Of a stretch of 16,052 bases of DNA, positions 1-16,052 are shown in pieces (position 1 is the stretch's first letter; every line of letters starts with the position of its first letter). This DNA is from Abditibacteriaceae bacterium (GTDB taxonomy: Bacteria; Armatimonadota; Abditibacteriia; Abditibacteriales; Abditibacteriaceae). Below the pieces are notes generated by a model. The model did not search any database. It was not told the origin of the DNA and was given only the letters and a program-made list of their open reading frames with translations. A program made the position numbers and the translations under genes. Location of the stretch: NCBI GenBank assembly GCA_031372065.1, contig JANMKN010000359.1, positions 1 through 16,052 of the forward strand. The letters run 5' to 3'.

Positions 1-1110
1 GTTTTGGTCATGTAAGTTTTTTAAATCGCGTCGCAGTTGGGCAATTTGTGATGTGATGGTGCGGGCACGGTTCATCGCGCTTTCGAGTGGTGTTGGCCCG
101 GCGCTGGTTGGGTGCAGTGCGCCTTTGGTTGAAGGGACACTGCCGGTGCTGGAGGCGCTGTTGCCCGCATTTAAGTCTTTGGCAGCTTGTGCGGCTTGTG
201 GCCCCGTAAGACCATGTGTTTTGATTTGTTGCACGAGGGCACGCTGTTGGTTGCCATCTTTCAATTGGGCAATGGCGCGCGCTTGGTGTTGGCTGATGTT
301 GCCATCGGTGATTTCTTGAAGGATGTCGGTTGGCAGTTTGCTGATGGCAATGTAGTAATGAATGGAGCGAGGATCGGTAAAACCGACTTCAGAGGCCACA
401 TCGTCCCAACTCACTTTGGGCGTCTTGCTGCTGCTTTCGTAGCGTTCCAGCACATGGCTCATCCATTGTGGGCGACTTAGAAAATCCTTTTTCATTTTTT
501 CGTAAGTTGCTGCTTGCAATTTTTGATTGGGCGAATTTTTGGTGAAACCTGCCAGATATTCATCCAACTCGCTTTGCATATCGGCTTTGAGTTCGATAAG
601 AGCTTCGCCCATGTCAGCGTCGGCCAAGTCGCTGCGATGGATGTTCTCCATCAAGTTGATGCGCCGCGCCGTGCGGTCATCCACGTTTTTAATAATGATG
701 GGAATTTTTTCGAGTCCGGCCCGCTGCGCGGCCATCAGGCGGCAGTCGCCCGCCATGTTTTCATATTGAGGAATTTCTGCCGGTCCCCATTTGCGTGGGC
801 GCACCAGAATCGGCTGAAGCATTCCGATATCGGTTTGCTTCATGGAGTTGGCGATGTCGTCAATTTTTTTCTCCAACGCTGGTGTCACGGTTTTACGCGA
901 GTTGCCGGGGTTAAGAAAAACCTGTGAGGTGTTGACGATCAAGGCGTCGGGATTATGCTCGATGCGTTGCAAATCCGCTTTAGGCACCGGCATTTCATCG
1001 GTGCGCAGTCGGCGGCGCCGCGCACTGTCGGCTATTTGTTGAGCTACCGAAGAGCCACTGGTGCCTTGGTTGCCTTGACGGGCTTGGGTGATTTGATTGG
1101 CTTTTGCCAT
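1..1110 (-). CDS. parB: ParB/Spo0J-family partition protein (3' end beyond window)
   Basis: Manual translation from ATG at 1110 is open to position 1: MAKANQITQARQG...NPGNSRK...GMLQPILVRP...MAGDCRLMAAQRAGLEKIPIII...LMENIHRSDL...SWDDVASEVGFTDPRSIHYYIAISKLP...ISQHQARAIAQL. Has the ParB N-domain motifs (GxxRxxA, ENxxRxDL) and an HTH. AAGGA SD upstream; directly downstream of parA with a 67-nt overlap. Confidence 0.92.
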   Translation of the reverse strand, partial: MAKANQITQARQGNQGTSGSSVAQQIADSARRRRLRTDEMPVPKADLQRIEHNPDALIVNTSQVFLNPGNSRKTVTPALEKKIDDIANSMKQTDIGMLQPILVRPRKWGPAEIPQYENMAGDCRLMAAQRAGLEKIPIIIKNVDDRTARRINLMENIHRSDLADADMGEALIELKADMQSELDEYLAGFTKNSPNQKLQAATYEKMKKDFLSRPQWMSHVLERYESSSKTPKVSWDDVASEVGFTDPRSIHYYIAISKLPTDILQEITDGNISQHQARAIAQLKDGNQQRALVQQIKTHGLTGPQAAQAAKDLNAGNSASSTGSVPSTKGALHPTSAGPTPLESAMNRARTITSQIAQLRRDLKNLHDQN

Positions 1111-1865
1111 ATCTTTGAAATTTCCTTTGCGAGGTCTTGATAATCTTCGCGGGCCGTGCCGGTTTGTTTAGCGGTTTGGGTTGTGACGGTTTTCCACGAG
1201 CTTGCCAACTCCTTGATTTTCACGGTATGGCGTATTCTGGTTTTGCAGAGCTTTTTCGGCCATGTGGACAGGCAGGCGCTTTCGATATTCTGGTCGTTGA
1301 TGAGATTAGCGCGGTAGGCCGTTAGCAGAACGCGAAAGTCAAGTGGCTCAAAGTTATAGGCTTCGCGTAGGCTTTCCGCTCGGTCTGTTGTGTCCACTGC
1401 ACAATCAAATGCCATACGCTCCGAGTTGACGGGCACAATCAGCCCCGTTGCCGCCAGAAGGGCGTTACGCGAAACGTAATCAAAACGGGACGGGCAGTCT
1501 ATGATGCAAATATCAAAGAATTTGCTGGCAGCAGCGTGGCGCAAGGCGCGCGACAGGCGCAGTTCACCGGCGGGCAAATCAGGCAACTGGCGCGCGGCAC
1601 TTTCCATGCGCGGGTCACTGGCGACAACATGGAGGTGTGGTGTAATTTTTGTGGCCGCCGCTTCGATGGCTAAATCATCCATCAGCACATCGTAAATAGA
1701 ATGCGCAGGTGGCTCATTCTCCTGAAGGAAAAATGAGGTCGCCGAGTATTGTGCATCAAGGTCAATGAGCAATACTTTGCAAGACGCGGCATAAACAGCG
1801 GCCAGATTAACTGCTGTGATGGTTTTGCCTACCCCGCCCTTGCTATTGTAGGTGGCTAAGATCAT
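1044..1865 (-). CDS. parA: ParA/Soj-family partition ATPase
   Basis: Deviant Walker A KGGVGKT, VLLIDLDAQ and Walker B IIDCP. Start placed at ATG 1865 (MILATYNSKGG) rather than 1958. No N-terminal HTH. Confidence 0.95.
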   Translation of the reverse strand: MILATYNSKGGVGKTITAVNLAAVYAASCKVLLIDLDAQYSATSFFLQENEPPAHSIYDVLMDDLAIEAAATKITPHLHVVASDPRMESAARQLPDLPAGELRLSRALRHAAASKFFDICIIDCPSRFDYVSRNALLAATGLIVPVNSERMAFDCAVDTTDRAESLREAYNFEPLDFRVLLTAYRANLINDQNIESACLSTWPKKLCKTRIRHTVKIKELASSWKTVTTQTAKQTGTAREDYQDLAKEISKIWQKPIKSPKPVKATKAPVALR

Positions 1866-2049: not shown

Positions 2050-2655
2050 TTACGCAGGCGGCCACGCTGTAACCAGAACACCTTTGATTTCAATATCTTG
2101 AGCGCGCATGGTGCGCGGCGTGTAACGCGGATCGGGATTTGTTGGTTTCAAATCAACCCACTCGCCGCCGGACTGAAACGTGAGTTTTTTCACGGTGCAT
2201 TTGCGGATGCCGTCTTCTTCGAATTCAACATGAGCAATGCAGCCATTGTCGCACGGTTTTTGAGGGTCGAATAAAGCGAACATCCCGTCTGCGATGGATT
2301 GCCCATTCAGTCCCGCCATCGAATTGCCAACAACGATCAAGGTATACATATCGGGCCGCACGCGCACTTTATCAGGAACGCGAGTAATGGTGTCATCCAG
2401 CGGGCGAATCTCTTCGGCATCGCCACCGGGAATATAACCAAGAACACGAACGCGACCTGGCAAGCCAGCCTCACTTAAACCGGACTTGTAAATGAAGTCA
2501 ACAACTTCATTTTGGTTTTTCTTTTGAAGCGAACGAATGAGTGTGCGCACGAAATCACTCTCGTTCTCCATATGTAGAGCCTCTACATATGTGCGCACAG
2601 TGCGTTTTTCGTCTTCGCTAACCCTTAAATTTAGTGATTTATCGCGTTCTGCCAT
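2050..2655 (-). CDS. CI/LexA-like repressor: N-terminal RHH-like domain plus C-terminal S24 autopeptidase
   Basis: S24 catalytic motifs VGNSM (Ser) and TVKKL (Lys), cleavage-loop-like VLGYIPGG, and C-terminal IEIKGVLV. N-terminus SLNLRVSEDEK...NESDFVRTLI fits the RHH pattern. AAAGGA SD. Confidence 0.88.
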   Translation of the reverse strand: MAERDKSLNLRVSEDEKRTVRTYVEALHMENESDFVRTLIRSLQKKNQNEVVDFIYKSGLSEAGLPGRVRVLGYIPGGDAEEIRPLDDTITRVPDKVRVRPDMYTLIVVGNSMAGLNGQSIADGMFALFDPQKPCDNGCIAHVEFEEDGIRKCTVKKLTFQSGGEWVDLKPTNPDPRYTPRTMRAQDIEIKGVLVTAWPPA

Positions 2656-2674
2656 CGTAATCCTTTAACGGCTT

Positions 2675-2691
2675 GTGTCACATTGTAACCC
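2675..2691. promoter_or_regulatory. Putative operator O3, overlapping the leftward (repressor) -10 box
   Basis: GTGTCACA-T-TGTAACCC matches consensus GTGTTGCA-N-TGCAACAC at 12/16 and contains minus-strand TACAAT (2687-2682). A perfect half-site TGCAACAC lies next to it at 2694-2701. Confidence 0.6.
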
Positions 2692-2753
2692 TATGCAACA
2701 CAACTGAATCGCACATAAACCGGAAATTATTCGAAAAAAACCTTTTTTTACCA

Positions 2754-2782
2754 TTGACGTGTTGCAATGCATCACATATCAT
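2754..2782 (+). promoter_or_regulatory. Rightward sigma70-type early promoter with operator O2 (2759-2775) in the spacer
   Basis: TTGACG (2754-2759), 17-bp spacer, TATCAT (2777-2782). Palindrome GTGTTGCA-A-TGCATCAC at 2759-2775. Confidence 0.75.
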
Positions 2783-2791
2783 AGCTTTAAT

Positions 2792-2808
2792 GCGTTGCGT
2801 TGCAACAC
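2792..2808. promoter_or_regulatory. Putative operator O1
   Basis: GCGTTGCG-T-TGCAACAC (14/16 to consensus) lies just downstream of the predicted transcription start and abuts the AAAGGAGG SD of the Cro-like gene. Confidence 0.7.
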
Positions 2809-2824
2809 AAAAGGAGGCAGAAAT

Positions 2825-3085
2825 ATGGCTCAAAGCGGACAACTGACCCTGAGCGAGGGAGAGAATGGTAATTCCCCTTCCTTACGAGATCCTGATCATC
2901 TGAGTTTGCGAGTGGGGATGGAGGGTCGCACTAAAGCCGAATCATTAACTCGGTTGGCGGGCTATGAGAAAATGAATCAATTTTACAAGGCCCTGATCAA
3001 CCATCTCTCTGACTTGGCGGACGACAAGCCGTTTGACATCCGCAATCTGGTTTTTAAAGAAGCCAACCAACCGAATTTGCCTTAA
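2825..3085 (+). CDS. Small Cro-analogue regulator, RHH-like
   Basis: Strong SD AAAGGAGG then ATG 2825; divergent from the repressor. HLSLRVGMEGRTKAESLTRLAGYEKMNQFYKALINHL aligns without gaps to the repressor N-terminus. Confidence 0.75.
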   Translation: MAQSGQLTLSEGENGNSPSLRDPDHLSLRVGMEGRTKAESLTRLAGYEKMNQFYKALINHLSDLADDKPFDIRNLVFKEANQPNLP

Positions 3086-3113: not shown

Positions 3114-3998
3114 ATGCAAAACTCAGCCACAACCCCGTCGTTATCAGTCGTTTCCTCCATTGTGTCATCTGTTGTGTCATCTGTTGACACATCTGTTGAC
3201 ACATCTACCGATTCACTATCCCCGGTATCCACCACACCGTTTGATGCCTACGCCCAGTCCACTTCACCAGCGGCAAACCACCCCGGCCATGCGCCTGAGT
3301 GGTTAAGTGATCTCATCGCGGCAAGGGACAGCGTGCGCCATTTTCTGCTTCATCATTGGCGTTATAATCGCGTGCGCCGCTTGGTGCGTCGCCAGCAAAT
3401 TCGTTGGATTCGCTCCGTTCGCTCTGGGCGTGACAAAGATTCATCTCTCACGAATTTTATTTGTGAGAAGTTTGATGCTTTTACTGGCGCTGATGTCCTG
3501 ATTGATGAGTTGTTCGACGAGCGCGCGCAGATGGCACAGCACATAGCTCAGTTGCAGCAGAGCGTGACCGAGCAGGAAGAGTTGGCCGAAACCGAAAAAC
3601 TCAATCGCCAAGATTTGGAGCGGGTCGTTTTACAATTTGAAGCGGAAACGCAGCACAGTCTGGATGCACGAGACCGCGTTATCGCGGCGCAACAAAAGCA
3701 GATTGACGATCTCATGCAGGAGAAATTGCAGTTCATGGCGCAGATTAGCCACCTGCATAACATCGTGATAGGTATGGGAGCGGATTTTTGCACCGAAAAC
3801 GCCGATGGAAAGATGAACCATGGTTCGCAAGAAGCGCCGTCTTATAACCAGCCTTTGCAAACCATCAAACCGCTGCCGCGCCCAGCGTCCTTTCAGGATT
3901 ATTCTCAGGGCGGTGGGGCGTCCGGTAATGATTGTCAACGGCCAACCAGCCGGTTGGTCGTTATTCACACGGTTTGCCCTCCGTTGGAGGAAAAGTAA
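3114..3998 (+). CDS. Hypothetical coiled-coil protein
   Basis: SD AAGGAG then ATG 3114. Ser/Thr-rich N-terminus, Arg-rich segment, then a Q/E/L-rich heptad region. No family recognised. Confidence 0.75.
   Translation: MQNSATTPSLSVVSSIVSSVVSSVDTSVDTSTDSLSPVSTTPFDAYAQSTSPAANHPGHAPEWLSDLIAARDSVRHFLLHHWRYNRVRRLVRRQQIRWIRSVRSGRDKDSSLTNFICEKFDAFTGADVLIDELFDERAQMAQHIAQLQQSVTEQEELAETEKLNRQDLERVVLQFEAETQHSLDARDRVIAAQQKQIDDLMQEKLQFMAQISHLHNIVIGMGADFCTENADGKMNHGSQEAPSYNQPLQTIKPLPRPASFQDYSQGGGASGNDCQRPTSRLVVIHTVCPPLEEK
3160..3207. repeat. 4 x 12-bp tandem repeat with internal inversion
   Basis: TTGTGTCATCTG x2, then TTGACACATCTG and TTGACACATCTA. TGTGTCA and TGACACA are reverse complements. Confidence 0.85.
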
Positions 3999-4032
3999 GC
4001 GAGCGAGTCACAACGAGCAAGCAACACCAAGA

Positions 4033-4056
4033 CGTAACGGCGTAACAACGTAACAA
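4033..4056. repeat. 3 x 8-bp tandem repeat abutting a ribosome-binding site
   Basis: CGTAACGG CGTAACAA CGTAACAA immediately before GGAG and ATG 4066. Confidence 0.8.
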
Positions 4057-4065
4057 GGAGATTTC

Positions 4066-5100
4066 ATGTCACAAAACGGCAATAACGCGCTTGCCACGCG
4101 TTCTGATGTGGTCGAGGGTGAAGTTGTAGCTTCGGCCATTGCACCAGCCCTGACGATGGTGCTGGATTTAAATGAAATGGAGAAGCGCTACAAACTTCTC
4201 CAAGAGTTCATCAATCGCTTGATGAAGGACGGACACGATTATGGAGTCATCCCCGGCACCGGCAATAAACCAACTTTGTTGTTACCGGGCGCTCACAAGC
4301 TGAACAGTATTTACGGCTTGTCGCCTATCGTGGAAATCTTGGAAGCTGTCGAAGATTTTGAGGGTGGCTTCCTAAAATACAACATCAAAGTGAAATTGGT
4401 GGACAAGCGCAACGGCATGGTCGTCGCCGAAGGCATTGGCAGTTGCAACACGCAGGAAAGGCGGTATGCCAACGCCATTCGTGCGGGCAAACAAACGGCA
4501 GCCGACTACGCCAACACCTGTTTAAAAATCGCCAAGAAGCGCGCCTTGATTGACGCCACGCTGACAGCCACCGGCACCAGTGGCATTTTTGAACAGGACT
4601 TCGATGATGAGCCTGCCACAGGTAATCATAACAACAGTCAGCGCGGTAATGGCAACCAAAATAACAACCAAAATGCCAACCGCCAAAATCCGCCTCAAAA
4701 CCAAAGGCAGCAACGCCCGGACTATAACCGTCCAGCGGCGGCAGTTGCCGTCGAATCTTGCACGCAGCCGCAAATAGAGGAAATTTGGCGTTTAGCAAAT
4801 CAAGCCTATCCCAGACAAGCGGAAAAAACGCTGCAAGGTTGGCTGCAATGCCCGGTTGAGAAACTCTCCAAGCAACGTGCCTCCGAAGTCATTGAGGAAT
4901 TGCTGGGAGTCGTATCAAAGCAAGCGTTTCCTGATGATCCCCGCAACGAAAACACCGCCGAGCCTCTGACAGCTTCTCCGACATTCGCGCCCGCGTCGGC
5001 AGGAAATAACAACGATGATGGTGTGCCTCGTGGCGAGTCTCATGGCGAGTCTCGTCGTATGCCCAGTGATGATGTTCCCGATCCTTTCGCCGACGAATAA
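4066..5100 (+). CDS. Probable phage single-strand annealing/recombination protein (Rad52/RecT/Erf-like superfamily)
   Basis: DYGVIPGT..KPTLLLPGAHKL, EGIGSCNTQE and NTCLKIAKKRALIDATL...IFEQD resemble the conserved C-terminal helix of SSAP annealing domains. N/Q-rich linker, small helical domain, acidic tail; early-operon position. The family assignment is inference. Confidence 0.65.
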   Translation: MSQNGNNALATRSDVVEGEVVASAIAPALTMVLDLNEMEKRYKLLQEFINRLMKDGHDYGVIPGTGNKPTLLLPGAHKLNSIYGLSPIVEILEAVEDFEGGFLKYNIKVKLVDKRNGMVVAEGIGSCNTQERRYANAIRAGKQTAADYANTCLKIAKKRALIDATLTATGTSGIFEQDFDDEPATGNHNNSQRGNGNQNNNQNANRQNPPQNQRQQRPDYNRPAAAVAVESCTQPQIEEIWRLANQAYPRQAEKTLQGWLQCPVEKLSKQRASEVIEELLGVVSKQAFPDDPRNENTAEPLTASPTFAPASAGNNNDDGVPRGESHGESRRMPSDDVPDPFADE

Positions 5101-5131
5101 TCACTAAGCACTTAGTAATAAGGGGGTTTTT

Positions 5132-5446
5132 GTGAGCCAAACTTCAGTTATTGATGCACCATCCATCGCCGATTCATTATCCACCGATCAAAATTCTGTT
5201 TGCACCACGGTTCGCCTTTGCCCTTATTGCCAAGCGGCGCTATTGTCCGATGGACGCTGTAGCGCTGCTTGTTTTCCCCATCCGGGCCATGTTGTCGGAC
5301 TGCCCAAACACCCTTGCCCTCGTTGCGGCCAGATGATGGCGCTGACCATTGCCAAAGATAACCGCAAGCTGCTGCTCAATCCACGTAGCGGCAACAAACA
5401 CGTCTGCTCCTTGGGAGCGAGGCAGGGAAGGAGTTCGGATTTATGA
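5132..5446 (+). CDS. Small Cys-rich (zinc-binding) hypothetical protein
   Basis: GTG start after AAGGGGG; CPYC..CSAAC and CPRC..HVC motifs; ATGA overlap with the next ORF. Confidence 0.65.
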   Translation: MSQTSVIDAPSIADSLSTDQNSVCTTVRLCPYCQAALLSDGRCSAACFPHPGHVVGLPKHPCPRCGQMMALTIAKDNRKLLLNPRSGNKHVCSLGARQGRSSDL

Positions 5447-5643
5447 AATCCATTCGCCATTTGCTGGCGCTTTTGATTGCCGTGCCTCTTCTGTCTGTTT
5501 TTCTGTCCCTTCTGGTTTTGATTAGTCTGTGCGACGAAATCATTGGCCTGGCGCGCAAAAAATTCCGGTGTCATTTCCGCAAGTCCGCAGAGAATCCAGA
5601 AGCAGAAAATTCCGGCGAGTGGTCACTTTTTGAGACTGGATAA
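5443..5643 (+). CDS. Small hypothetical membrane protein
   Basis: Hydrophobic N-terminal stretch LLALLIAVPLLSVFLSLLVLISL; AGGAG SD; fills the operon gap. Confidence 0.6.
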   Translation: MKSIRHLLALLIAVPLLSVFLSLLVLISLCDEIIGLARKKFRCHFRKSAENPEAENSGEWSLFETG

Positions 5644-5664
5644 AGGATTTATGAAGGAGTCATC

Positions 5665-6300
5665 ATGAAAGAATTTTTCACGCCCGCACCCGCCGTCGAA
5701 GAAATCGGGCGCGAGCTAATCGAGGAATATCACAAGCATTTGCTGGATCATAGCGTGCGCGTCGAGTTCCTTTTTCGCAGCAAAACACCAGTGAAAGCGG
5801 GCCGCGCCCAGTGGGGCACCGCGCGCAAAGTGAGCGGCCTCAATGCGCATTTGCGCTATTTCAGTGCGGCCAAGAATGATGTTTTAATGAGTTCGCGGCG
5901 CGAATTGAACTTCACCGATGAGGAAAAATACAACGAGCCGTTTTTCCTCATTTTGATTAGTCGCCCCATTTGGGAGAACATCAAAGACCCTCAACGGCGC
6001 GCGCTGGTGGATCATGAGCTAATGCACCTTGATTCGGATTACGACGACAAGGGAGAAATCAAACTTTCCATTGTCGGCCACGATTTCGAGGCGTTTAACC
6101 GCGAATTTGAGTTACATGGTTTGTGGCGCGACGATGCCAAGAAAATGCTGAAAACCCTGAAAGATGCCAATCAATTAAAACTGGATTTTCAGCCCGACAA
6201 ACAACCAGATCAACAAACGAAAAAAGAACCCTCACCGCTTTCGCGGCCATCGCCACCCTTAACCGAAACTGATGGCAGCCATCCGGTGGTAGTGCATTAA
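5665..6300 (+). CDS. Putative phage metallopeptidase (zincin HExxH)
   Basis: ALVDHELMH and HDFEAF..E..HG motifs, plus WGTARKV, typical of the putative phage metallopeptidase family. AAGGAG SD. Confidence 0.85.
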   Translation: MKEFFTPAPAVEEIGRELIEEYHKHLLDHSVRVEFLFRSKTPVKAGRAQWGTARKVSGLNAHLRYFSAAKNDVLMSSRRELNFTDEEKYNEPFFLILISRPIWENIKDPQRRALVDHELMHLDSDYDDKGEIKLSIVGHDFEAFNREFELHGLWRDDAKKMLKTLKDANQLKLDFQPDKQPDQQTKKEPSPLSRPSPPLTETDGSHPVVVH

Positions 6301-6330
6301 ATGCATTTGCAAGTGCATTAAGCGCAGATC

Positions 6331-6367
6331 AGGAGCGGCCCCACAATAAAATGGGCCGCTCCTTTTT
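6331..6367 (+). terminator. Intrinsic terminator upstream of the replication gene
   Basis: AGGAGCGGCCC, 11-nt loop, GGGCCGCTCCT, followed by TTTT. Confidence 0.8.
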
Positions 6368-6393
6368 AATTCGGTAATTTAGGAGAGGATTTT

Positions 6394-8481
6394 ATGTCCG
6401 ATCAAACACGGGTGCCCCTTCCGCAACGGAACGGGGTCGCACCGAACGCCTTTGTGCGCCCGCAGCAAGGCGCTCAAAACAGCGTGCTGCACCAAAAAGC
6501 CGCACCGCCAACGCGATCATCAACGCTATCATCACCGCATCCGCAAAATCAATCACGTCCCGCGCAGCAGCTGGAGGCCACGCGACAACGCCGTCGGCGC
6601 TTCGAGGAAAATCGCTTTTTCATCGTCAACGGCATGACGACACGCTTTAGTCCTGATTTGGCGCGTGAGATCGGAGATCGGGAAAGCCAGCTCCTTTTGC
6701 AATACGAATACTGGATTGCTACCGAAGGCCTGCAATTATCCGATGGGCGCCGGTGTTTGCAAGATTCGTTGCGGGCCTTGCATGGCTTTTTCAGTTGGTG
6801 GACATTTAGCACGGTGCGACGCACCTTTGATAGTGTGGTGTCGCAAGGCTACCTTTACACGGAATCTGTGCCAGATGAGCGCTGCCAGTCCGGCACAAAC
6901 AAAAACGCGGGGCGTCTGGTCTTCATTCACTACGGCCATTGCGCGCGTCTGCAAAGCATTCAAGTTTCCTCGCGTAATTTCCTGCTTGACCCACCCAAAA
7001 ACGAACCCGGCAGCGAACCCGGCAGTGACATGGAAAACCACATGAAAAACCATGCAGGCAATGAGCCAGAATTGTTGGCAAACGCGCCTTGTTTAGGTGT
7101 CGAAAATGGTGTGCCAACTATGAATAATAAGGTGTGTCATAATGGCACACCTTGCGCCGAGGTGTTTCAAAATGGGGCCGAGGTGTGCCAAAATCAAGCA
7201 TTGGTGTGCCATAGTGGCACACCTCTCATATATAAAGAGCGCGCGCGTGAAAGAGTAAGAGAATATAAAGAGTCTTCGAGCGAAGAGCGCGCAGGCGCGC
7301 CCGGCGGCGCGCACGAAGCAACACCTTTGCCAGCTTCCTCCCCTCCCATACCAACGAGCGACGAACGGACGGACGACAGACGACGAAATTTTTCAAATTT
7401 TGAAAACGGCGGAAACGGCAAAAACGGCGAAACTGACGGTTTGCAGGTTGATGATTGGGGTAATTTGACCTGTGACGACGATGTGTTGGGTTTGCTGTAT
7501 GCTTTTGGCATCAGCGCCCAGAACATTCGTCACATCGAAACCAAAGACTGGGACGAAATTCCCGATGCGATTTGCTTCATGCGCCGAGAAAGTTTGAGCA
7601 TCGAAGAAATCGAAGAGTATGTTTCACGCTCTCGCAAACGCTATCATGCCGCCTATCTGTCGCAATTCGTCAAGCGCTTTTATCAAACCATGCCGCATTT
7701 GGCATCGCGCAAAAATGCGACCCGGCGTGCCAGTCAGCAAGGGAGTCAAGTGCCTAAATCGGCCCCGCCGCCAGCTTCCCCATCACCCGCGCTGCCCGCG
7801 CCAAAGGCGTCATCAGGCGAGGCGCCATCACACCAAACTTCGTCGCACCAAACTTCATCACACCAGCAGCCAAGCGAAACTCGCAGCTATGAAACGGAAT
7901 CTGACCGGCAGAGGCGTGTGCTGTATGCCGCACAAAGTGTCTTTCAAGCCCTTTCAAACGCTGATGCGGCAAATCTGCGAGATCGAGCTGAAAGTCAATT
8001 ACCGCCGCTCTTTGGTGACCGCCTGCGTTTGGCCCGCGCCAACCACAAAGAACCCGGTTATTCTGAATTGCGTGCCATCCAAGAGATGATTTTCCGGGTT
8101 CTCTGGCAAGAGCAAACATCCCTGTGCGAGGCCGCGTTAGGTGCGCAGCCCGAAGATATTGAAGCCGTGCCCTTGGTGCCAGTCTCGTTCGGAGGACTGC
8201 GCTACCCTGCCCTGCCAGCCGCGCCAGAAGAGCCAAGCAATGCACCGGGCCATGCAGCGGATAATACACCGCGTGAGAGCGAAATTTCCCAGACGAGGCC
8301 CAGCCCAGCAACGCCATCTAACTCGGCAACGGCACTCGAAAACACCGCGCCGCCAGCGCGCAGTCCGATGGCGAACGGATTCGCGAGCGGATTCGCAGGC
8401 GCAACTGACGTGATCGGCGGCGTGCTGCGCCAGATGCAAAACGGCGGCGTGTCCGAGGAGAGGCAGTTCCGCGCCGCTTAA
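6394..8481 (+). CDS. Phage replication initiator (lambda O-like / replisome organiser), N-terminal winged helix
   Basis: FSPDLAREIGDRESQLLLQYEYW...FFSWWTFSTVRRTFDSVVSQGYL resembles the wHTH of prophage initiators. An internal iteron cluster and A-rich tract follow the domain. AGGAGAGG SD. Confidence 0.78.
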   Translation: MSDQTRVPLPQRNGVAPNAFVRPQQGAQNSVLHQKAAPPTRSSTLSSPHPQNQSRPAQQLEATRQRRRRFEENRFFIVNGMTTRFSPDLAREIGDRESQLLLQYEYWIATEGLQLSDGRRCLQDSLRALHGFFSWWTFSTVRRTFDSVVSQGYLYTESVPDERCQSGTNKNAGRLVFIHYGHCARLQSIQVSSRNFLLDPPKNEPGSEPGSDMENHMKNHAGNEPELLANAPCLGVENGVPTMNNKVCHNGTPCAEVFQNGAEVCQNQALVCHSGTPLIYKERARERVREYKESSSEERAGAPGGAHEATPLPASSPPIPTSDERTDDRRRNFSNFENGGNGKNGETDGLQVDDWGNLTCDDDVLGLLYAFGISAQNIRHIETKDWDEIPDAICFMRRESLSIEEIEEYVSRSRKRYHAAYLSQFVKRFYQTMPHLASRKNATRRASQQGSQVPKSAPPPASPSPALPAPKASSGEAPSHQTSSHQTSSHQQPSETRSYETESDRQRRVLYAAQSVFQALSNADAANLRDRAESQLPPLFGDRLRLARANHKEPGYSELRAIQEMIFRVLWQEQTSLCEAALGAQPEDIEAVPLVPVSFGGLRYPALPAAPEEPSNAPGHAADNTPRESEISQTRPSPATPSNSATALENTAPPARSPMANGFASGFAGATDVIGGVLRQMQNGGVSEERQFRAA
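7096..7270. repeat. Iteron cluster / probable replication origin inside the initiator gene
   Basis: GGTGTGCCAWAATGG-like units at 7096, 7108, 7131, 7161, 7182 and 7203 (last three at 21-bp spacing). The 7129-7153 and 7203-7223 copies are near-perfect palindromes. Followed by a purine/A-rich tract with ATATAAAGAG twice. Confidence 0.75.
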
Positions 8482-9565: not shown

Positions 9566-9877
9566 ATGACAAATAAGACAACCAGAATCTGCGGAGGCTG
9601 TATTCATCTCCAGTTTGATAACAGTTACCGGATGGATACCCTCCGCGAGACAGGGATTTCTATACCGAAGGTGTGCGCTGTCGGCTCTAACCAAGTCAGG
9701 CGATTTATTCCTCTTTTCGGAAGTTGGGTGCTTTGCCCCGCAGAAAACTGTCCGCGCCAGCAAAAAGGGACAGCGGCGGAGATTATAGATTTGGAATGGA
9801 CTGACGAAAGGCCCGCAGGTGAGGGTTATCCAAATCAGGGCTGCGAAAACTGCAAAAATTCACCAGAAGGTTTTTAA
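9566..9877 (+). CDS. Small Cys-rich hypothetical protein
   Basis: ATG 9566 after GAGG; CGGC, C..CPAENC and CENC motifs; fills the gap between flanking genes. Confidence 0.6.
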   Translation: MTNKTTRICGGCIHLQFDNSYRMDTLRETGISIPKVCAVGSNQVRRFIPLFGSWVLCPAENCPRQQKGTAAEIIDLEWTDERPAGEGYPNQGCENCKNSPEGF

Positions 9878-9893
9878 GAATGTGACCAACATT

Positions 9894-11081
9894 ATGCAAC
9901 CTTTAAAACTCCTCACAGCGGAACGAGCGCCACTCAGCAACGGCATCAGCACGACGCCCGAAATCATGACTCTACTCACCAACGGGGCACCTGTCGCATT
10001 GGGTGTCAGCGGTGGTAAAGATTCCTGTGCCCTTGCCATTGCCACCAACGAATATCTGAATTCCATTAGTCATACCGGCCCACGCGTTTTGATACACAGC
10101 GATCTGGGCCGCGTTGAGTGGCGCGATTCACTGCCGACCTGCCAGCGCCTTGCCCAGTTTTTGGACTTGGAATTGACTGTGGTGCAGCGCGGCGCCGGTG
10201 ACATGATGGACAGGTGGCAAGTGCGCTGGGAAAACAACATGGCGCGCTATGCCAATCTCTCTTGTGTCAAGATCATTTTGCCGTGGTCGACCCCGTCCAT
10301 GCGCTTTTGCACCTCGGAATTGAAAACCGCTGTTATCTGCGCCGAGTTGAAAAAGCGTTTCCCCGGCCAGACCATCATCAGTGCTTCGGGCATTCGCCGC
10401 GATGAAAGCGCCAAACGCGCCAAGGCTCCTGTTGCCGCCGCGCAAGAGAAACTTACTGGTAAAACATTAGGCACCACTGGCTTCGATTGGCATCCCATCG
10501 TGGAATGGTCAACCGAGGACGTTTTCGCTCTGCTGTGTAATCGCGGCTTTGCTTTGCACGAGGCGTATACCACCTACAGCGCCTCACGCGTTTCCTGTGT
10601 ATTTTGCATCATGTCCGCGCTGAGGGATTTAAAGGCCGGGGCCAGCTGCTCGGATAACCATGCCATCTATCGCCAAATGTGTGCGCTGGAGATTGCTTCA
10701 ACCTTCTCTTTTCAAGAGAATCAGTGGCTCAGTGATATTGCACCGCATCTGCTGGACAGTGAAATCCGCGAACATCTGCCGGAAGCCAAGCACCGCGCCG
10801 CTCTGCGCGAAAAGGCTGAGGCGCAAATTCCAAAGCACTTATTGTATTGCAAGCAATGGCCGATCTGCATTCCGACGTTGGCCGAGGCGGAGCTACTCAC
10901 CCAAGTGCGCCTGAGCGTGGCTGAAACTGTTGGCTTGACAATCCGCTGCACCGATCCGTTTTCGATTATCGCGCGCTACGAGGAATTGACGCAATTGAAA
11001 AAGCAAAAAAGCAAAGCCAAGGACAGATTAACCTCTGCGCCAGATTGCACTGCCCAGAGAAGATTGGAGTGGGCGGCATGA
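9894..11081 (+). CDS. PAPS-reductase-family (CysH/DndC-like) PP-loop protein
   Basis: VALGVSGGKDS PP-loop, RFCTSELK, GIRRDESAKR, HPIVEWS and RVSCVFC. Start uncertain (ATG 9894 chosen; frame is open from 9819). Confidence 0.9.
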   Translation: MQPLKLLTAERAPLSNGISTTPEIMTLLTNGAPVALGVSGGKDSCALAIATNEYLNSISHTGPRVLIHSDLGRVEWRDSLPTCQRLAQFLDLELTVVQRGAGDMMDRWQVRWENNMARYANLSCVKIILPWSTPSMRFCTSELKTAVICAELKKRFPGQTIISASGIRRDESAKRAKAPVAAAQEKLTGKTLGTTGFDWHPIVEWSTEDVFALLCNRGFALHEAYTTYSASRVSCVFCIMSALRDLKAGASCSDNHAIYRQMCALEIASTFSFQENQWLSDIAPHLLDSEIREHLPEAKHRAALREKAEAQIPKHLLYCKQWPICIPTLAEAELLTQVRLSVAETVGLTIRCTDPFSIIARYEELTQLKKQKSKAKDRLTSAPDCTAQRRLEWAA

Positions 11082-11527
11082 TCACAAAACGATTTCCTAT
11101 CACACCCAAAACGGGATACAGGCTGCTTGATAAAATGAACCAGCTACACGCTGATATGGCAGCACAGGTGTTGGAATTCATTTTGTTAAAAAATGACGGT
11201 GCACCCGCCCGGTGGATCAGCTATCAATCCGGCTTGTCTGATGATGAGCTGGAAGCAGCCATCGCATTTGAATTCGGCGCCTATCAAGAGAAAAACTACA
11301 TCACTGGGTGGCATGGCGAGATTTGTTTTCAATTTATGGGTAAGAATTGGGCGCCGTTGGTTATACGCACCGTCGAAGATAGCCAAGCCATCTTGTTTGG
11401 CAAGCCATTATTGCAGGCTGTTCGCCAGTTGTTGGAAATTCCAAACACACAGCCGGGGCACAGCGATAGTGAAGCACCCTCTGTCCAACTTGAGCTTGTC
11501 TTTGAAAAAATAGGATCCCTTGCATGA
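11078..11527 (+). CDS. Hypothetical protein
   Basis: ATGA overlaps with both neighbours (11078-11081 and 11524-11527); GGAG SD. Confidence 0.75.
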   Translation: MITKRFPITPKTGYRLLDKMNQLHADMAAQVLEFILLKNDGAPARWISYQSGLSDDELEAAIAFEFGAYQEKNYITGWHGEICFQFMGKNWAPLVIRTVEDSQAILFGKPLLQAVRQLLEIPNTQPGHSDSEAPSVQLELVFEKIGSLA

Positions 11528-12177
11528 ACTATCAATTTCGTTCCTTGACCGTTTGGCCGCGCGCCTTTGCCCAAGACCAGCGGCCCTCCCAATTCTCGTC
11601 CACTTATAGTTCTACACTTCAACTTTTGGAAAAAGAACTGAATTTCATCGACGCGCGCCATGTGGTGATTGAATTGGCAGTTCCATCTGACCAAATCCGC
11701 AACGATGGCTTGCCACGCTCCACAGCGCGCCCCACGCATCCGGGCGTGATTGTGTCCTTTGATTTGCCATGCTATATAAATGGGAAATGGGCAACGCGAC
11801 CATTGAATATGCCATGCGATTCCTTTACCAAGTGGCAGGATAATTTGCGGGCAATTGCTTTGACCCTCGAAGCGTTACGCAAAATCAATCGCTATGGCGT
11901 GACGCAAGGTGGTGAGCAATATAAAGGTTGGGCCGCCTTACCAGAGCCAGAACCGAAAACAGATTTAGCGAAGGTTGGTGATGCCGTCGCGTTTGTAGCA
12001 CGTCATTCGGAGACGGGGATAGCCCCCTCCAAACTCTTAAAGAGTGCCGAGCAAACAAAAAATGCTTACCGCGCCGCCGCGCGCCGCTTGCATCCCGATG
12101 TTGGAGGGAATGAAGAGGATTTCAAAAACTTGCAAACGGCTTATGAAACGCTGAATCGTCACCATCAGCAAAAGTGA
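11524..12177 (+). CDS. Phage J-domain (DnaJ-like) protein
   Basis: C-terminal AYRAAARRLHPDVGGNEEDFKNLQTAYETL (HPD motif). N-terminal RNDGLPR..PGVIVSF..CDSF..NLRAIALTLEALR..RYGV domain is typical of phage-borne J proteins. Confidence 0.9.
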   Translation: MNYQFRSLTVWPRAFAQDQRPSQFSSTYSSTLQLLEKELNFIDARHVVIELAVPSDQIRNDGLPRSTARPTHPGVIVSFDLPCYINGKWATRPLNMPCDSFTKWQDNLRAIALTLEALRKINRYGVTQGGEQYKGWAALPEPEPKTDLAKVGDAVAFVARHSETGIAPSKLLKSAEQTKNAYRAAARRLHPDVGGNEEDFKNLQTAYETLNRHHQQK

Positions 12178-12333: not shown

Positions 12334-13071
12334 TTAGTCTTCTTTTTTTGTTGCTTCGCCACCGGCCTGTTCCTGCATCGCTATTTCTTCACTGACCAAC
12401 TCATCCAGACGCGCGCCGAGTTCCCGGCGCGCCACGAACTCGATAACCCGCAGACGTAGCCATTCAGCGCGCGTAGGGCGGTTTGCCTCGCGCGCGACTA
12501 TGGCGCTCGTGATTTCATCGGCGCTTTGCCAGTCTCGCAAAACATGAACTGTGACCTTGAAGCGGGCCGCGAACTCAATAAAACGCACCTGTGAGTCGCG
12601 CAACTGCCCCAGCCGGTCTTTGACTTCGATCAAAATCACGCGGCTGCCACGCAACGCAATTACATCGGGCAGGCCGCTGCTGGCCCAACGCGGCTCCATT
12701 CCGAAAATCCGATAGGCGCGCAGATAGCTGCCCGTTTCGGTTTTCATTCTGCCGGAGTTCATGCGCACCACCAGCCACCCGGCGGCGAACAAACGTTCCA
12801 TAATGCGTTGCTGGATTACCTTTTCGGGAATCTCTTCCGGTTTGAGAATGCCCTTGCCACCAGAAAAGCGCTCCGTGCGGCGTGGGCCACGCGCGGCGTC
12901 TTTTATGGCTTTTTGCTCTGGCGTGAGGGTTTCTTTTGGGTTTTTGCTGTTGTTGGCTTTAACCCCTTTGCCATTGCTTTTGCCATTGCATTGTGGGCAG
13001 CGCGCCCGTTGTGATTTTTCGGAATATTCCAATTGTGAGGAACAACGCGAACAGAAAAGAGGAATTTGCAC
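12334..13071 (-). CDS. VRR-NUC (PD-(D/E)xK) nuclease with N-terminal zinc ribbon
   Basis: EKVIQQRI...GLPDVIALRGSRVILIEVK...GQLRDSQVRF; N-terminal CSRC..CPQC; GTG start with weak SD. Confidence 0.88.
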   Translation of the reverse strand: MQIPLFCSRCSSQLEYSEKSQRARCPQCNGKSNGKGVKANNSKNPKETLTPEQKAIKDAARGPRRTERFSGGKGILKPEEIPEKVIQQRIMERLFAAGWLVVRMNSGRMKTETGSYLRAYRIFGMEPRWASSGLPDVIALRGSRVILIEVKDRLGQLRDSQVRFIEFAARFKVTVHVLRDWQSADEITSAIVAREANRPTRAEWLRLRVIEFVARRELGARLDELVSEEIAMQEQAGGEATKKED

Positions 13072-14476: not shown

Positions 14477-15820
14477 ATGGCGACATTTTATTATTCGTTC
14501 GACGACACCAAAAATGACGGCTCCTCCCTCCACGGCGCCGAATGGGACGCTTTAACACGCATTTTCTCTTCACAGTTGCAGGGCGCCTTGCGCTTGCATG
14601 GTCCGGGCGTGGTGGCGTTGCCCGATGCAACATCATTTCAGGTGACAGCAGGCGGAGCAGGCGAGCCGTTTGTTGTTAACGCGGGCAGCGCACTTATCAA
14701 ACATGGCGTTGGCATTGTATGGTGTCTGGCAAATGACGAAACAGAGATCCCGTTATCCGCGCTCAGTGACGGCGATCAAAATTATATTCATGTCGCCGTT
14801 CAGGTGGCCGTGGCCGTGGCCGTTGGCGCGCCCGATACCAGAGAAAATGCTACGCCCATATTTGCGGTCTCCGATGAAGAGACGCTGGACGGCCACGAAC
14901 TTTTAGCCCAAATCACGTTTGAAGATGACGCCATCTTACTCGTTGTTGATCGGCGACGATTTTCACCCGCGCTGGGCCATAATCCGCTGCTTGCTTTGCT
15001 GTTTGGCAATGGGCGCATTGCCGGTTTCGATACCGCCATTGGTGCCCCCACGTTCGATGCGGGAACGCTCAACATCACCCTACCCGCCGGTTCGCAGTGG
15101 ATTATCTCCGGCACTTTCGTTCAGCTTGATAGTGATTTAACTATCGAAGTTCCCGCAAATGCTGCTGGACTGTGGGGCAAACTTTCTCTGGACGAATCGG
15201 GATTGCCCACGGTCTTGGAAGATGATTGGTTAAGCGTGGCACCCGCGCGCGGCGTTGGCGTGCTGGGCAACGTGACCAGCGATGCCACGCAGATTACCGC
15301 TTTTACCGATACGGCGCGTGACATCATCCAAACCGAAGCAGCGAAACAACAGCGTTTTGAAGCGATTGAAGCACGTCTGACCGTTGTAGAAGGCGGCGGT
15401 GGTGGAGGCGGCTCCACTTACACGGGTCTGGGGTTGTGGCTGCCAGATCCGGGCGACTCACGCCAAACCTACATCGTCATCGCGGCGATGATCGCTGCAC
15501 TGCGCGCTGAATTGCTGGCGCTGATTCGCGATGGCGGTGTGCGGCCCCAGCAAACCGATCTGGCAAAGCTGATTGGCGAAAATGCCATCATGCGTCAGGA
15601 AATCGCCAAGTGCCAGCTATTTCTGCGGAAGATTTCCGGCTTGCTCGATTTGGATTTGATGGTCGAACTGGGCCTTGAGCGAAGCCAATCAGCGAACATC
15701 GTCGGCATCCCCGGCGGCACGGAGATTTACGGTGCCGGTGGCAGCGTGGGCGCCACGTTCCCCGACCACTTGGGCGCTTCAACGCTAACGATGAACGACG
15801 ATGGCACCGTAGAGCCGTAA
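14477..15820 (+). CDS. Probable virion structural protein (minor tail/baseplate/fibre-like)
   Basis: Acidic, G/A/V/T-rich protein with two similar beta-rich modules (VNAGSALI..LLAQITF..VVDRR and LPAGSQWII..VLGNVTS..FTDTAR), a short coiled coil and a poly-Gly hinge. Start uncertain (no SD at ATG 14477). Confidence 0.55.
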   Translation: MATFYYSFDDTKNDGSSLHGAEWDALTRIFSSQLQGALRLHGPGVVALPDATSFQVTAGGAGEPFVVNAGSALIKHGVGIVWCLANDETEIPLSALSDGDQNYIHVAVQVAVAVAVGAPDTRENATPIFAVSDEETLDGHELLAQITFEDDAILLVVDRRRFSPALGHNPLLALLFGNGRIAGFDTAIGAPTFDAGTLNITLPAGSQWIISGTFVQLDSDLTIEVPANAAGLWGKLSLDESGLPTVLEDDWLSVAPARGVGVLGNVTSDATQITAFTDTARDIIQTEAAKQQRFEAIEARLTVVEGGGGGGGSTYTGLGLWLPDPGDSRQTYIVIAAMIAALRAELLALIRDGGVRPQQTDLAKLIGENAIMRQEIAKCQLFLRKISGLLDLDLMVELGLERSQSANIVGIPGGTEIYGAGGSVGATFPDHLGASTLTMNDDGTVEP

Positions 15821-15912
15821 AAACAGCCGTAAAAAGCAAGTTGGCAACATCGGGCGATGCTTTGGCGATGTCTTGGCTTTGACCCGTTTGCATATTTTTG
15901 GAGGAAAGAACA

Positions 15913-16052
15913 ATGGAAGAAAACACGATCAATGCACTTGATTATCTGGCCCCACAACAAGGCCAAAGCGAAATGTCACAGTTCGTGCTGGAAGAGTCGA
16001 GGGCGCTCTTGCGCTTGACTCATGGCAAGCGGCAACTGGACGCAAAGTTGAA
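15913..16052 (+). CDS. Hypothetical protein, 5' part only
   Basis: GGAGG SD, ATG 15913, MEENTINALDYLAPQQGQSEMSQFVLEESRALLRLTHGKRQLDAKL open to the window edge. Confidence 0.7.
   Translation, partial: MEENTINALDYLAPQQGQSEMSQFVLEESRALLRLTHGKRQLDAKL

Follow-up and report, generated by a model that had tools for sequence, protein, structure and literature searches.

The divergent gene pair and the repressor

The stretch of DNA analysed here (the window) is the entire 16,052-nt contig JANMKN010000359.1 (contig C370 of the 6.14-Mb assembly G000) of an Abditibacteriaceae bacterium. It carries two divergent genes, a cI-like repressor gene (P0001, 201 amino acids, positions 2050–2655, minus strand) and a cro-like partner gene (P0002, 86 amino acids, 2825–3085, plus strand), separated by 169 bp of intergenic DNA (2656–2824). 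The repressor is predicted to consist of a ribbon-helix-helix (RHH) domain with an added third helix, a linker and an S24 autopeptidase domain, and the partner is likely an RHH protein of a three-helix subfamily (residues ~24–78). The two open reading frames and the intergenic DNA lie exactly where an earlier reading made from the letters alone (the sequence-only reading) had placed them, and that reading had proposed a lambda-style CI/Cro switch built entirely from RHH proteins. We consider the locus to be, with a probability of about 0.62, a RecA-inducible lysis–lysogeny switch of a plasmid-like temperate phage, in which an RHH-S24 protein serves as master repressor and an RHH protein as Cro.

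The N-terminal domain of P0001 (residues 4–57; 2485–2646, minus strand) is modelled by AlphaFold2 as a strand (residues 7–12, in a segment that stays extended up to residue 13) followed by three helices (14–26, 32–44 and 48–57). The monomer model, computed with the 37-row family alignment described below, has a predicted local distance difference test (pLDDT) score of 90.8, with values of 77–96 by ten-residue blocks in the N-domain. The strand corresponds to the ribbon S-L-N-L-R-V (2620–2637, minus strand), in which Ser7, Asn9 and Arg11 are, going by the RHH pattern, the predicted base-reading residues; positions 10 and 12 are hydrophobic in nearly all 37 family members. A structure search with the model against 48,161 representative chains lists 50 matches, of which the ten best are LexA, lambda CI, 186 CI and UmuD' (Z 10.5–14.5), and 34 begin in the N-domain. 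The latter are led by NikR (Z 6.4, root mean square deviation (rmsd) 1.8, 46 residues), Arc (Z 6.2, rmsd 2.1, 51 residues), the PutA RHH domain (Z 6.0, rmsd 1.7, 44 residues) and AmrZ. We take most of these listed N-domain matches to be RHH proteins, two being named so in their titles; none of them is titled or known as a helix-turn-helix (HTH) protein. When the family profile is searched against the PDB, weak N-terminal matches to ParG (E 0.037), CopG-family proteins, ORF56 and NikR appear below the S24 matches. No HTH family of Pfam matches P0001 at E-values up to 1, P0001 itself passes none of the Pfam RHH cut-offs (NikA-like, E 0.23), and an ESM Atlas search with residues 1–62 gave no usable match. 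An HTH or XRE fold was rejected for this domain: three helices are present, yet no HTH family or structure matches. P0001 thus stands apart from CI and LexA, since its N-domain has no HTH family match and matches RHH structures instead. The RHH assignment is well supported by the modelling, and the RHH-S24 fusion put forward in the sequence-only reading is borne out by the model, the RHH structural matches and the family profile, with no HTH model obtained; the fusion is almost certainly real.

On the C-terminal side, Pfam Peptidase_S24 (PF00717) matches residues 87–195 (E 3e-11; 43.4 bits against a cut-off of 23.3), and the closest PDB sequence match of P0001 is the C-domain of lambda CI (E 0.0018). 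The S24 part of the model matches LexA and lambda CI (Z 14.5), and the model superposes, loop included, on RecA-bound and hyper-cleavable lambda CI fragments. The Ser/Lys dyad is indeed intact, as previously claimed: Ser112 (2320–2322) and Lys156 (2188–2190, both minus strand) align with the dyad of LexA and lambda CI and are each kept in 36 of 37 family members. The predicted scissile bond Gly77-Gly78 (2422–2427, minus strand) aligns with LexA Ala84-Gly85. A Gly-x-Ile-x-small-Gly cleavage loop is also conserved in the family, Gly follows the predicted bond in 33 of the 37 aligned members, and the bond itself is Ala-Gly in 18, Gly-Gly in 15, Ala-Ser in 2, Leu-Ala in 1 and Leu-Ser in 1. The score of P0001 for the LexA family TIGR00498 is 33.4, far under the cut-off of 110.95. 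The host assembly encodes RecA, and its own LexA is of the winged-helix type.

A family of RHH-S24 proteins

A profile of three close proteins, searched against 1.84 billion representatives, returned 59 matches, which were sorted by eye and with Pfam into 35 RHH-like proteins with S24, 4 zinc-ribbon-like proteins with S24, 13 HTH/LexA proteins with S24, 3 S24-only fragments, 1 RHH protein without S24 and 3 long unrelated proteins. The 35 RHH-S24 matches together with P0003 and P0004 form the 37-member alignment (A2), whose members are mostly 24–40% identical to P0001. None of the 37 matches an HTH family in Pfam; RHH_1 is matched by four, two of them above cut-off (P0043 and P0056), and P0043 exceeds the Pfam cut-off for RHH_1 as well as that for S24. 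When each row was left out in turn, 36 of the 37 N-termini scored above every one of 200 shuffles, compared with 1 of 15 HTH controls, a test that is partly circular because the rows were picked by eye. Twenty members that were looked up are nearly all singletons. Of 401 genomes of the phylum, 3 contain strong matches, all inside the window's own family (3 of 27), and genome G188 gives a weaker match to an RHH-S24 repressor. Thirteen cultured-phage records match the repressor in the S24 part only. A plasmid search gave 58 records, and the three looked at (two from Thermus, one from Abditibacteriota) are winged-helix LexA proteins. Against viral contigs, alignments A1 and A4 retrieved nothing, A5 retrieved two weak loci that match in S24 only, and P0019 retrieved one true locus; one locus from a metagenome scan was discarded as a false match, an outer-membrane-type protein.

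The two domains vary independently. Between the window repressor and that of the related locus L001, identity is 39% in the N-domain and 79% in S24; between P0004 and P0016 it is 54% in the N-domain and 34% in S24, and the S24 domain of P0016 is 46% identical to that of the host LexA. In the S24 tree, host LexA is joined by three RHH rows (99/90), and the zinc-ribbon rows branch off at three points. Given this independent variation, domain swapping between N-domain and S24 is likely, and the faster divergence of the N-domain between the window and L001 would fit immunity variants. Multiple origins of the fusion were considered and set aside: a careful tree needs at least four label changes, but an approximately unbiased (AU) test on 54 of 64 rows (34 RHH against 20; four long branches, one short row, P0003 and four zinc rows dropped) did not reject a single clade of RHH rows (p 0.468).

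Several other proteins share parts of this architecture. Four S24 proteins (P0017, P0025, P0035 and P0050) begin with a CxxC...CxxC zinc-ribbon-like segment, neither RHH nor HTH; their Pfam zinc-ribbon matches are weak and under cut-off, they adjoin RHH-S24 rows on the S24 tree, and they may constitute a further class of self-cleaving regulators that lack an HTH. Stand-alone homologues of the N-domain (59–68 amino acids, ~30% identical) are encoded in two genomes of the same genus (L011:6483–6662 and L013:7035–7241), upstream of a gene that by eye we take to be ammonium-transporter-like. These are perhaps domesticated or donor RHH proteins; in the assembly of the window, the repressor is the only place where this domain turned up. 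P0040 (149 amino acids) joins a repressor-type RHH N-terminus to a partner-like second segment (a weak likeness, 43 of 1000 shuffles) and is possibly a tandem RHH protein without S24. On Thermus and Abditibacteriota plasmids (L048 and L049), winged-helix LexA heads mutagenesis cassettes (IMS-family gene, dnaE), and its S24 domain is close to that of some RHH-S24 members.

The partner, the operator-like sites and related loci

The commonest 8-mer of the intergenic DNA is present in six copies, a count equalled in none of 60 dinucleotide shuffles. We scored operator-like 17-bp palindromes over 16 positions of the consensus GTGTTGCA-N-TGCAACAC. One palindrome (2759–2775, 15/16) fills the spacer of a rightward sigma-70-like promoter (TTGACG, 17 nt, TATCAT; 2754–2782, plus strand; 10/12), and a second (2792–2808, 14/16) lies just past the expected start site. 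The promoter scan found three sites where 1.5 are expected by chance, and the rightward promoter is weak on its own. Across the assembly, these two palindromes, both at the rightward promoter, are the only sites that score at least 14/16. On the left, overlapping 17-mers 10 bp apart, at 2675 (12/16) and 2685 (11/16), form an operator-like array (2675–2701) within which lies a candidate leftward −10 element, TACAAT (2688–2683, minus strand), read by eye and not called by the scan. Because 27 sites score 13 and 350 score 12 assembly-wide, only their position lends significance to the left sites.

At L001 the intergenic DNA shows the same repeat excess with a different motif, and one motif family stands out in each of the two loci. 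A different perfect 17-mer, GCTAATCA-A-TGATTAGC, lies near the L001 partner gene; beside both genes there are also weaker 17-mers, spaced in 10-bp steps (9–11/16). The L001 ribbons read Q-I-G-V-R-L in the repressor and M-I-G-Y-R in the partner, as against S-L-N-L-R and H-L-S-L-R in the window, the middle residue becoming Gly in both L001 proteins; this hints that ribbons and operators change together across the two loci. Between the window and L001 the intergenic DNA gives no usable alignment, and a promoter scan of L001 found nothing.

The partner gene is preceded by AGGAGG (2812–2817). The gapless 37-residue alignment of the repressor and partner N-termini, with 9 identities, is reproduced as first described; 9 identities are reached by 208 of 10,000 shuffles and the BLOSUM score of 32 by 4 of 10,000, the last figure being somewhat optimistic because the stretch was picked by the sequence-only reading. 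BLASTP of the full-length repressor against the partner gives no alignment. The partner has one clear homologue, the L001 partner P0007, and none was found in viral contigs. The N-domains of P0001, P0003 and P0013 align to P0002 in one register (0, 1 and 0 of 2000 shuffles) and to P0007 in the same register (21, 4 and 2 of 2000); six other N-domains, that of P0007's own repressor included, mostly fail to align to either. Profile-profile comparison of the partner gives P 0.0026 over 55 columns, third helix included, against 0.8 for an XRE control and 0.22 for a winged-helix control. One Atlas set for the partner holds 14% RHH_1 at 0.92, and a homodimer prediction (median 0.38 against a mark of 0.42) is not used as evidence. 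From its similarity to one RHH subfamily only, the partner probably has an RHH fold; that it binds the same operators as the repressor, as the two loci suggest, has somewhat better than even odds.

We examined five loci: the window, L001 (counted once with G237:C307), L009, L045 and L034. In each of them the partner gene opens the rightward unit, and the order repressor-parA-parB is found in four (the window, L001, L009 and L045), two of them on phage contigs. In the window, parA (1044–1865, minus strand; Pfam AAA_31 E 1.7e-29, phrog_164 E 4e-51) lies downstream of the repressor gene on the same strand and is accompanied by parB (1–1110, minus strand; Pfam ParB_N E 3.6e-17, HTH_ParB E 9e-10), which is truncated by the contig end and has an uncertain start codon. 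Behind the partner, scans with Pfam and PHROGs identify early-type genes (3117–8481, plus strand) for a coiled-coil protein (3117–3998), a phrog_10048 product (4066–5100), a phage metallopeptidase family protein (5665–6300) and, by a weak match, a replication-initiator/DnaD-like protein (6394–8481). L001 has the gene order of the window plus one extra small gene. L009 (G107:C4, a 100-kb contig) has repressor, parA, parB, RepA and tyrosine recombinase genes on one side and the partner with a lambda-O-like initiator on the other; as the contig also bears terminase, major head and tail (fibre) genes, virion genes and plasmid partition and replication genes stand on one element, which defines a phage-plasmid. 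In L045, a 139-kb IMG/VR viral contig, the repressor gene overlaps by 4 nt an open reading frame that we take to be parA-like from a Walker motif recognised by eye, followed by a ParB-like gene and a recombinase. In L034 (genome G188), the RHH-S24 gene faces an HTH-like gene and a YqaJ recombinase, and no par genes were seen alongside. That the repressor heads a parA-parB(-rep) unit and belongs to a family of dozens had escaped the sequence-only reading. With par and rep genes following the repressor, and genes of phage early type following the partner, the leftward unit appears to serve lysogen maintenance and the rightward unit lytic growth.

Further features of these contigs were recorded. 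The G107 partner (L009:10843–10950) starts with five tandem six-residue repeats, continues with an RHH-like segment and has a coiled-coil end. A terminase large subunit gene at L036:16504–18699 contains an internal endonuclease-like insert, possibly an intein. The tail-like end of the window (15392–16052) is common to three contigs of its own assembly, C145, C74 and C37 (85–100%); it is 90% identical to phage contig C145, and the final 48 bases of the window overlap C37. C145 encodes terminase, major-head-like and tape-measure genes, and at least two related prophages are present in the assembly. A PAPS-reductase-domain protein encoded at 9819–11081, with a homologue on C145 and a weak DndC match (E 7.6e-5, far under cut-off), possibly functions in DNA modification. 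The gene at 11524–12177, whose product has a C-terminal DnaJ-like domain (phrog_9210), converges with that of a zinc-finger VRR-NUC nuclease (12334–13071).

A candidate lysis–lysogeny switch

P0001 is very probably a phage immunity repressor, and its cleavage driven by RecA is likely. The RecA-inducible switch of lambda logic proposed in the sequence-only reading holds as regards the divergent layout, the palindromes, the intact dyad and the host RecA gene; the evidence on the partner is weaker. In the mechanism that we propose, the repressor would be co-expressed in a lysogen with the partition genes, and in relatives also with plasmid replication genes. RHH dimers would sit on 8-bp half-sites, S24 domains would link adjacent dimers on the 17-bp operators and 10-bp arrays, and this occupancy would shut the rightward promoter. 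RecA filaments formed upon DNA damage would induce the repressor to cut itself at Gly77-Gly78. An RHH domain dimerises by itself. As the RHH fragment should therefore stay dimeric, cleavage would act unlike that in lambda, releasing the DNA through lost dimer-dimer cooperativity and not through monomerisation, with proteolysis of the fragment perhaps helping. For comparison, cleavage of LexA separates the DNA-binding from the dimerisation domain, according to the accessible text of bioRxiv 10.1101/2023.10.30.564768, and Clp clearance of the cleaved HdiR fragment is reported in the accessible text of PMC8565304. The partner, as Cro, would bind the same half-sites, silence leftward transcription of the repressor and partition genes and commit the phage to lysis. 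A wider proposal, that RHH-S24 proteins form a whole RecA-inducible class, the first non-HTH one, with cooperativity-breaking cleavage, a paralogous RHH Cro and a portable S24 sensor, is tentative and falls a little short of even odds.

Several results weigh against the RecA-inducible switch. N-domain matches at Z ~6 fall within the range that the search tool terms common. The operator consensus was derived from one of the scored sites, the left half of the 2759 palindrome, and 17-bp palindromes were not found in L009 or L045, where only repeated hexamers occur. No capsid or terminase match is present among the window proteins in Pfam or PHROGs, so the phage-plasmid status of the window depends on its relatives.

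Other such results concern the partner and speak for an alternative that we regard as unlikely, in which the repressor is as described and the partner is not an operator-sharing Cro, having other sites, another fold or a role through protein contact, for example in inactive mixed dimers. The partner model is poor (pLDDT 59), with a helix where the ribbon is expected, and no structure in its fold search exceeds Z 4; a profile of four partners retrieves no RHH protein from the PDB, the partner does not stand out from shuffles when scored with the 37-member N-domain profile (118 of 500), and hhalign of the partner with the family gives E 0.13–0.21. Its predicted base-reading residues (His, Ser, Arg) are unlike those of the repressor (Ser, Asn, Arg). 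The cognate L001 pair, P0004 and its own partner, has no significant similarity (732 of 2000 shuffles), so repressor and partner are not recent paralogues. Partners are longer in L009 and L045, and the L034 partner is HTH-like (only HTH_17, E 0.049). However, the partner heads the rightward unit in every locus and resembles a repressor subfamily in the same register across three helices, a single repeated motif family is prominent in the intergenic DNA of both the window and L001, and the ribbons of repressor and partner change in step. Three earlier claims are narrowed accordingly. A strand followed by two helices stands for the repressor, with its confident model, but the partner model lacks the strand; an all-RHH switch is retained for the window, where the partner is probably a related RHH protein, but is not general, because L034 pairs RHH-S24 with an HTH-like gene; and the two ribbons, though similar in one register in P0001 and P0002, do not descend from a recent duplication.

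Inducibility through RecA would be lost if the S24 domain served for oligomerisation only and induction came through an antirepressor or another signal. The C-domain of the phage 186 repressor is known only for oligomerisation, and a cut RHH fragment should stay dimeric. The bond of P0001 is Gly-Gly and not the canonical Ala-Gly, a feature of the 15 members noted above, and the residue after the bond is other than Gly in 4 of 37. The LexA pocket for RecA Phe203, given as V79, V82, F111, L113, V146 and V153 in the accessible part of bioRxiv 10.1101/2023.10.30.564768, maps by alignment to Leu72, Ile75, Tyr104, Leu106, His142 and Cys153 in P0001, where His142 thus occupies the position of LexA Val146; His at this position is a family trait (32 of 37). 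Against this, 36 of 37 members, most of them 24–40% identical to P0001, retain Ser and Lys, the cleavage loop is kept too, and the model superposes on cleavable CI fragments with its loop included, which leaves the oligomerisation-only reading rather improbable. In the loop of the host RecA (L031), Tyr stands in place of the key Phe203 of E. coli; together with the family His at the pocket position, this is possibly a tuning of the RecA contact.

Least probable is that the RHH-S24 protein acts chiefly as a ParG/CopG-type autoregulator of a partition-replication operon with an SOS off-switch and not a master repressor: its gene directly precedes parA in the window, L009 and L045 (with the 4-nt overlap in L045) and no RHH protein matches the family profile better than ParG, but ParB is present in four of four par loci, the best-scoring sites cover the rightward and not the leftward promoter, L034 carries an RHH-S24 gene with no par gene seen beside it, and no other repressor family matched among the 17 window proteins scanned with Pfam and PHROGs.

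Preferring the RecA-inducible switch, we compare it with known systems. LexA-like S24 regulators (LexA, HdiR, the Bacteroidetes SOS regulators and FddR) share the Ser-Lys autopeptidase and the cleavage loop and differ in their N-domains, all being described with HTH-type ones in the accessible text of PMC8565304 (2021), where S24 regulators use HTH-domain variants, and of PMC13148647 (2026), where they carry an N-terminal HTH; the word 'ribbon' is absent from that text of both. The sequence-only reading knew of no characterised RHH-S24 protein, and a search of mostly open-access literature without supplements likewise found no description, although InterPro or supplementary architecture tables could list the fusion. 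What is new is a repressor architecture not found in print; the lambda-type kind of switch and the S24 membership are known. At least 35 divergent RHH-S24 proteins would break the published rule of HTH-type S24 regulators, lambda switch logic would be rebuildable on a different DNA-binding fold, and the mechanistic question arises of how cleavage inactivates a repressor whose DNA-binding domain is already dimeric. The architecture would also explain why such phage repressors are overlooked or labelled 'LexA' or 'S24 family peptidase'. With small proteins, mapped sites and widely varying ribbons, the set is directly testable and could supply orthogonal damage-inducible repressors.

Lambda CI/Cro, like P22 C2, resembles the locus in that a repressor gene diverges from that of a small partner, the repressor ends in an S24 domain, 17-bp palindromes overlie the rightward promoter and early genes follow the partner; here, by contrast, the predicted DNA-binding domain is RHH and not XRE helix-turn-helix, the bond is Gly-Gly, the repressor heads parA-parB and the operators form half-site arrays with 10-bp steps. 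The plasmid regulators ParG, CopG and Omega share the RHH fold, tandem half-sites and a gene adjoining parA, but here an S24 domain is attached, a ParB gene is present and the best sites lie on the opposite promoter. In P22, Mnt and Arc are both RHH proteins, related and divergently transcribed, which control an antirepressor gene in a secondary immunity region; to our knowledge neither has an autopeptidase. P22 immI likewise places two repressors, Mnt and Arc, in a phage decision, according to the accessible text of PMC2629481. Arc also ranks high among the structures that the N-domain matches (Z 6.2), but in the window the gene behind the partner has no antirepressor family match in Pfam, PHROGs or NCBIfam, and the damage sensor is part of the RHH protein, which seems to be the primary repressor. 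Among RHH systems, Mnt/Arc of P22 comes closest to this locus.

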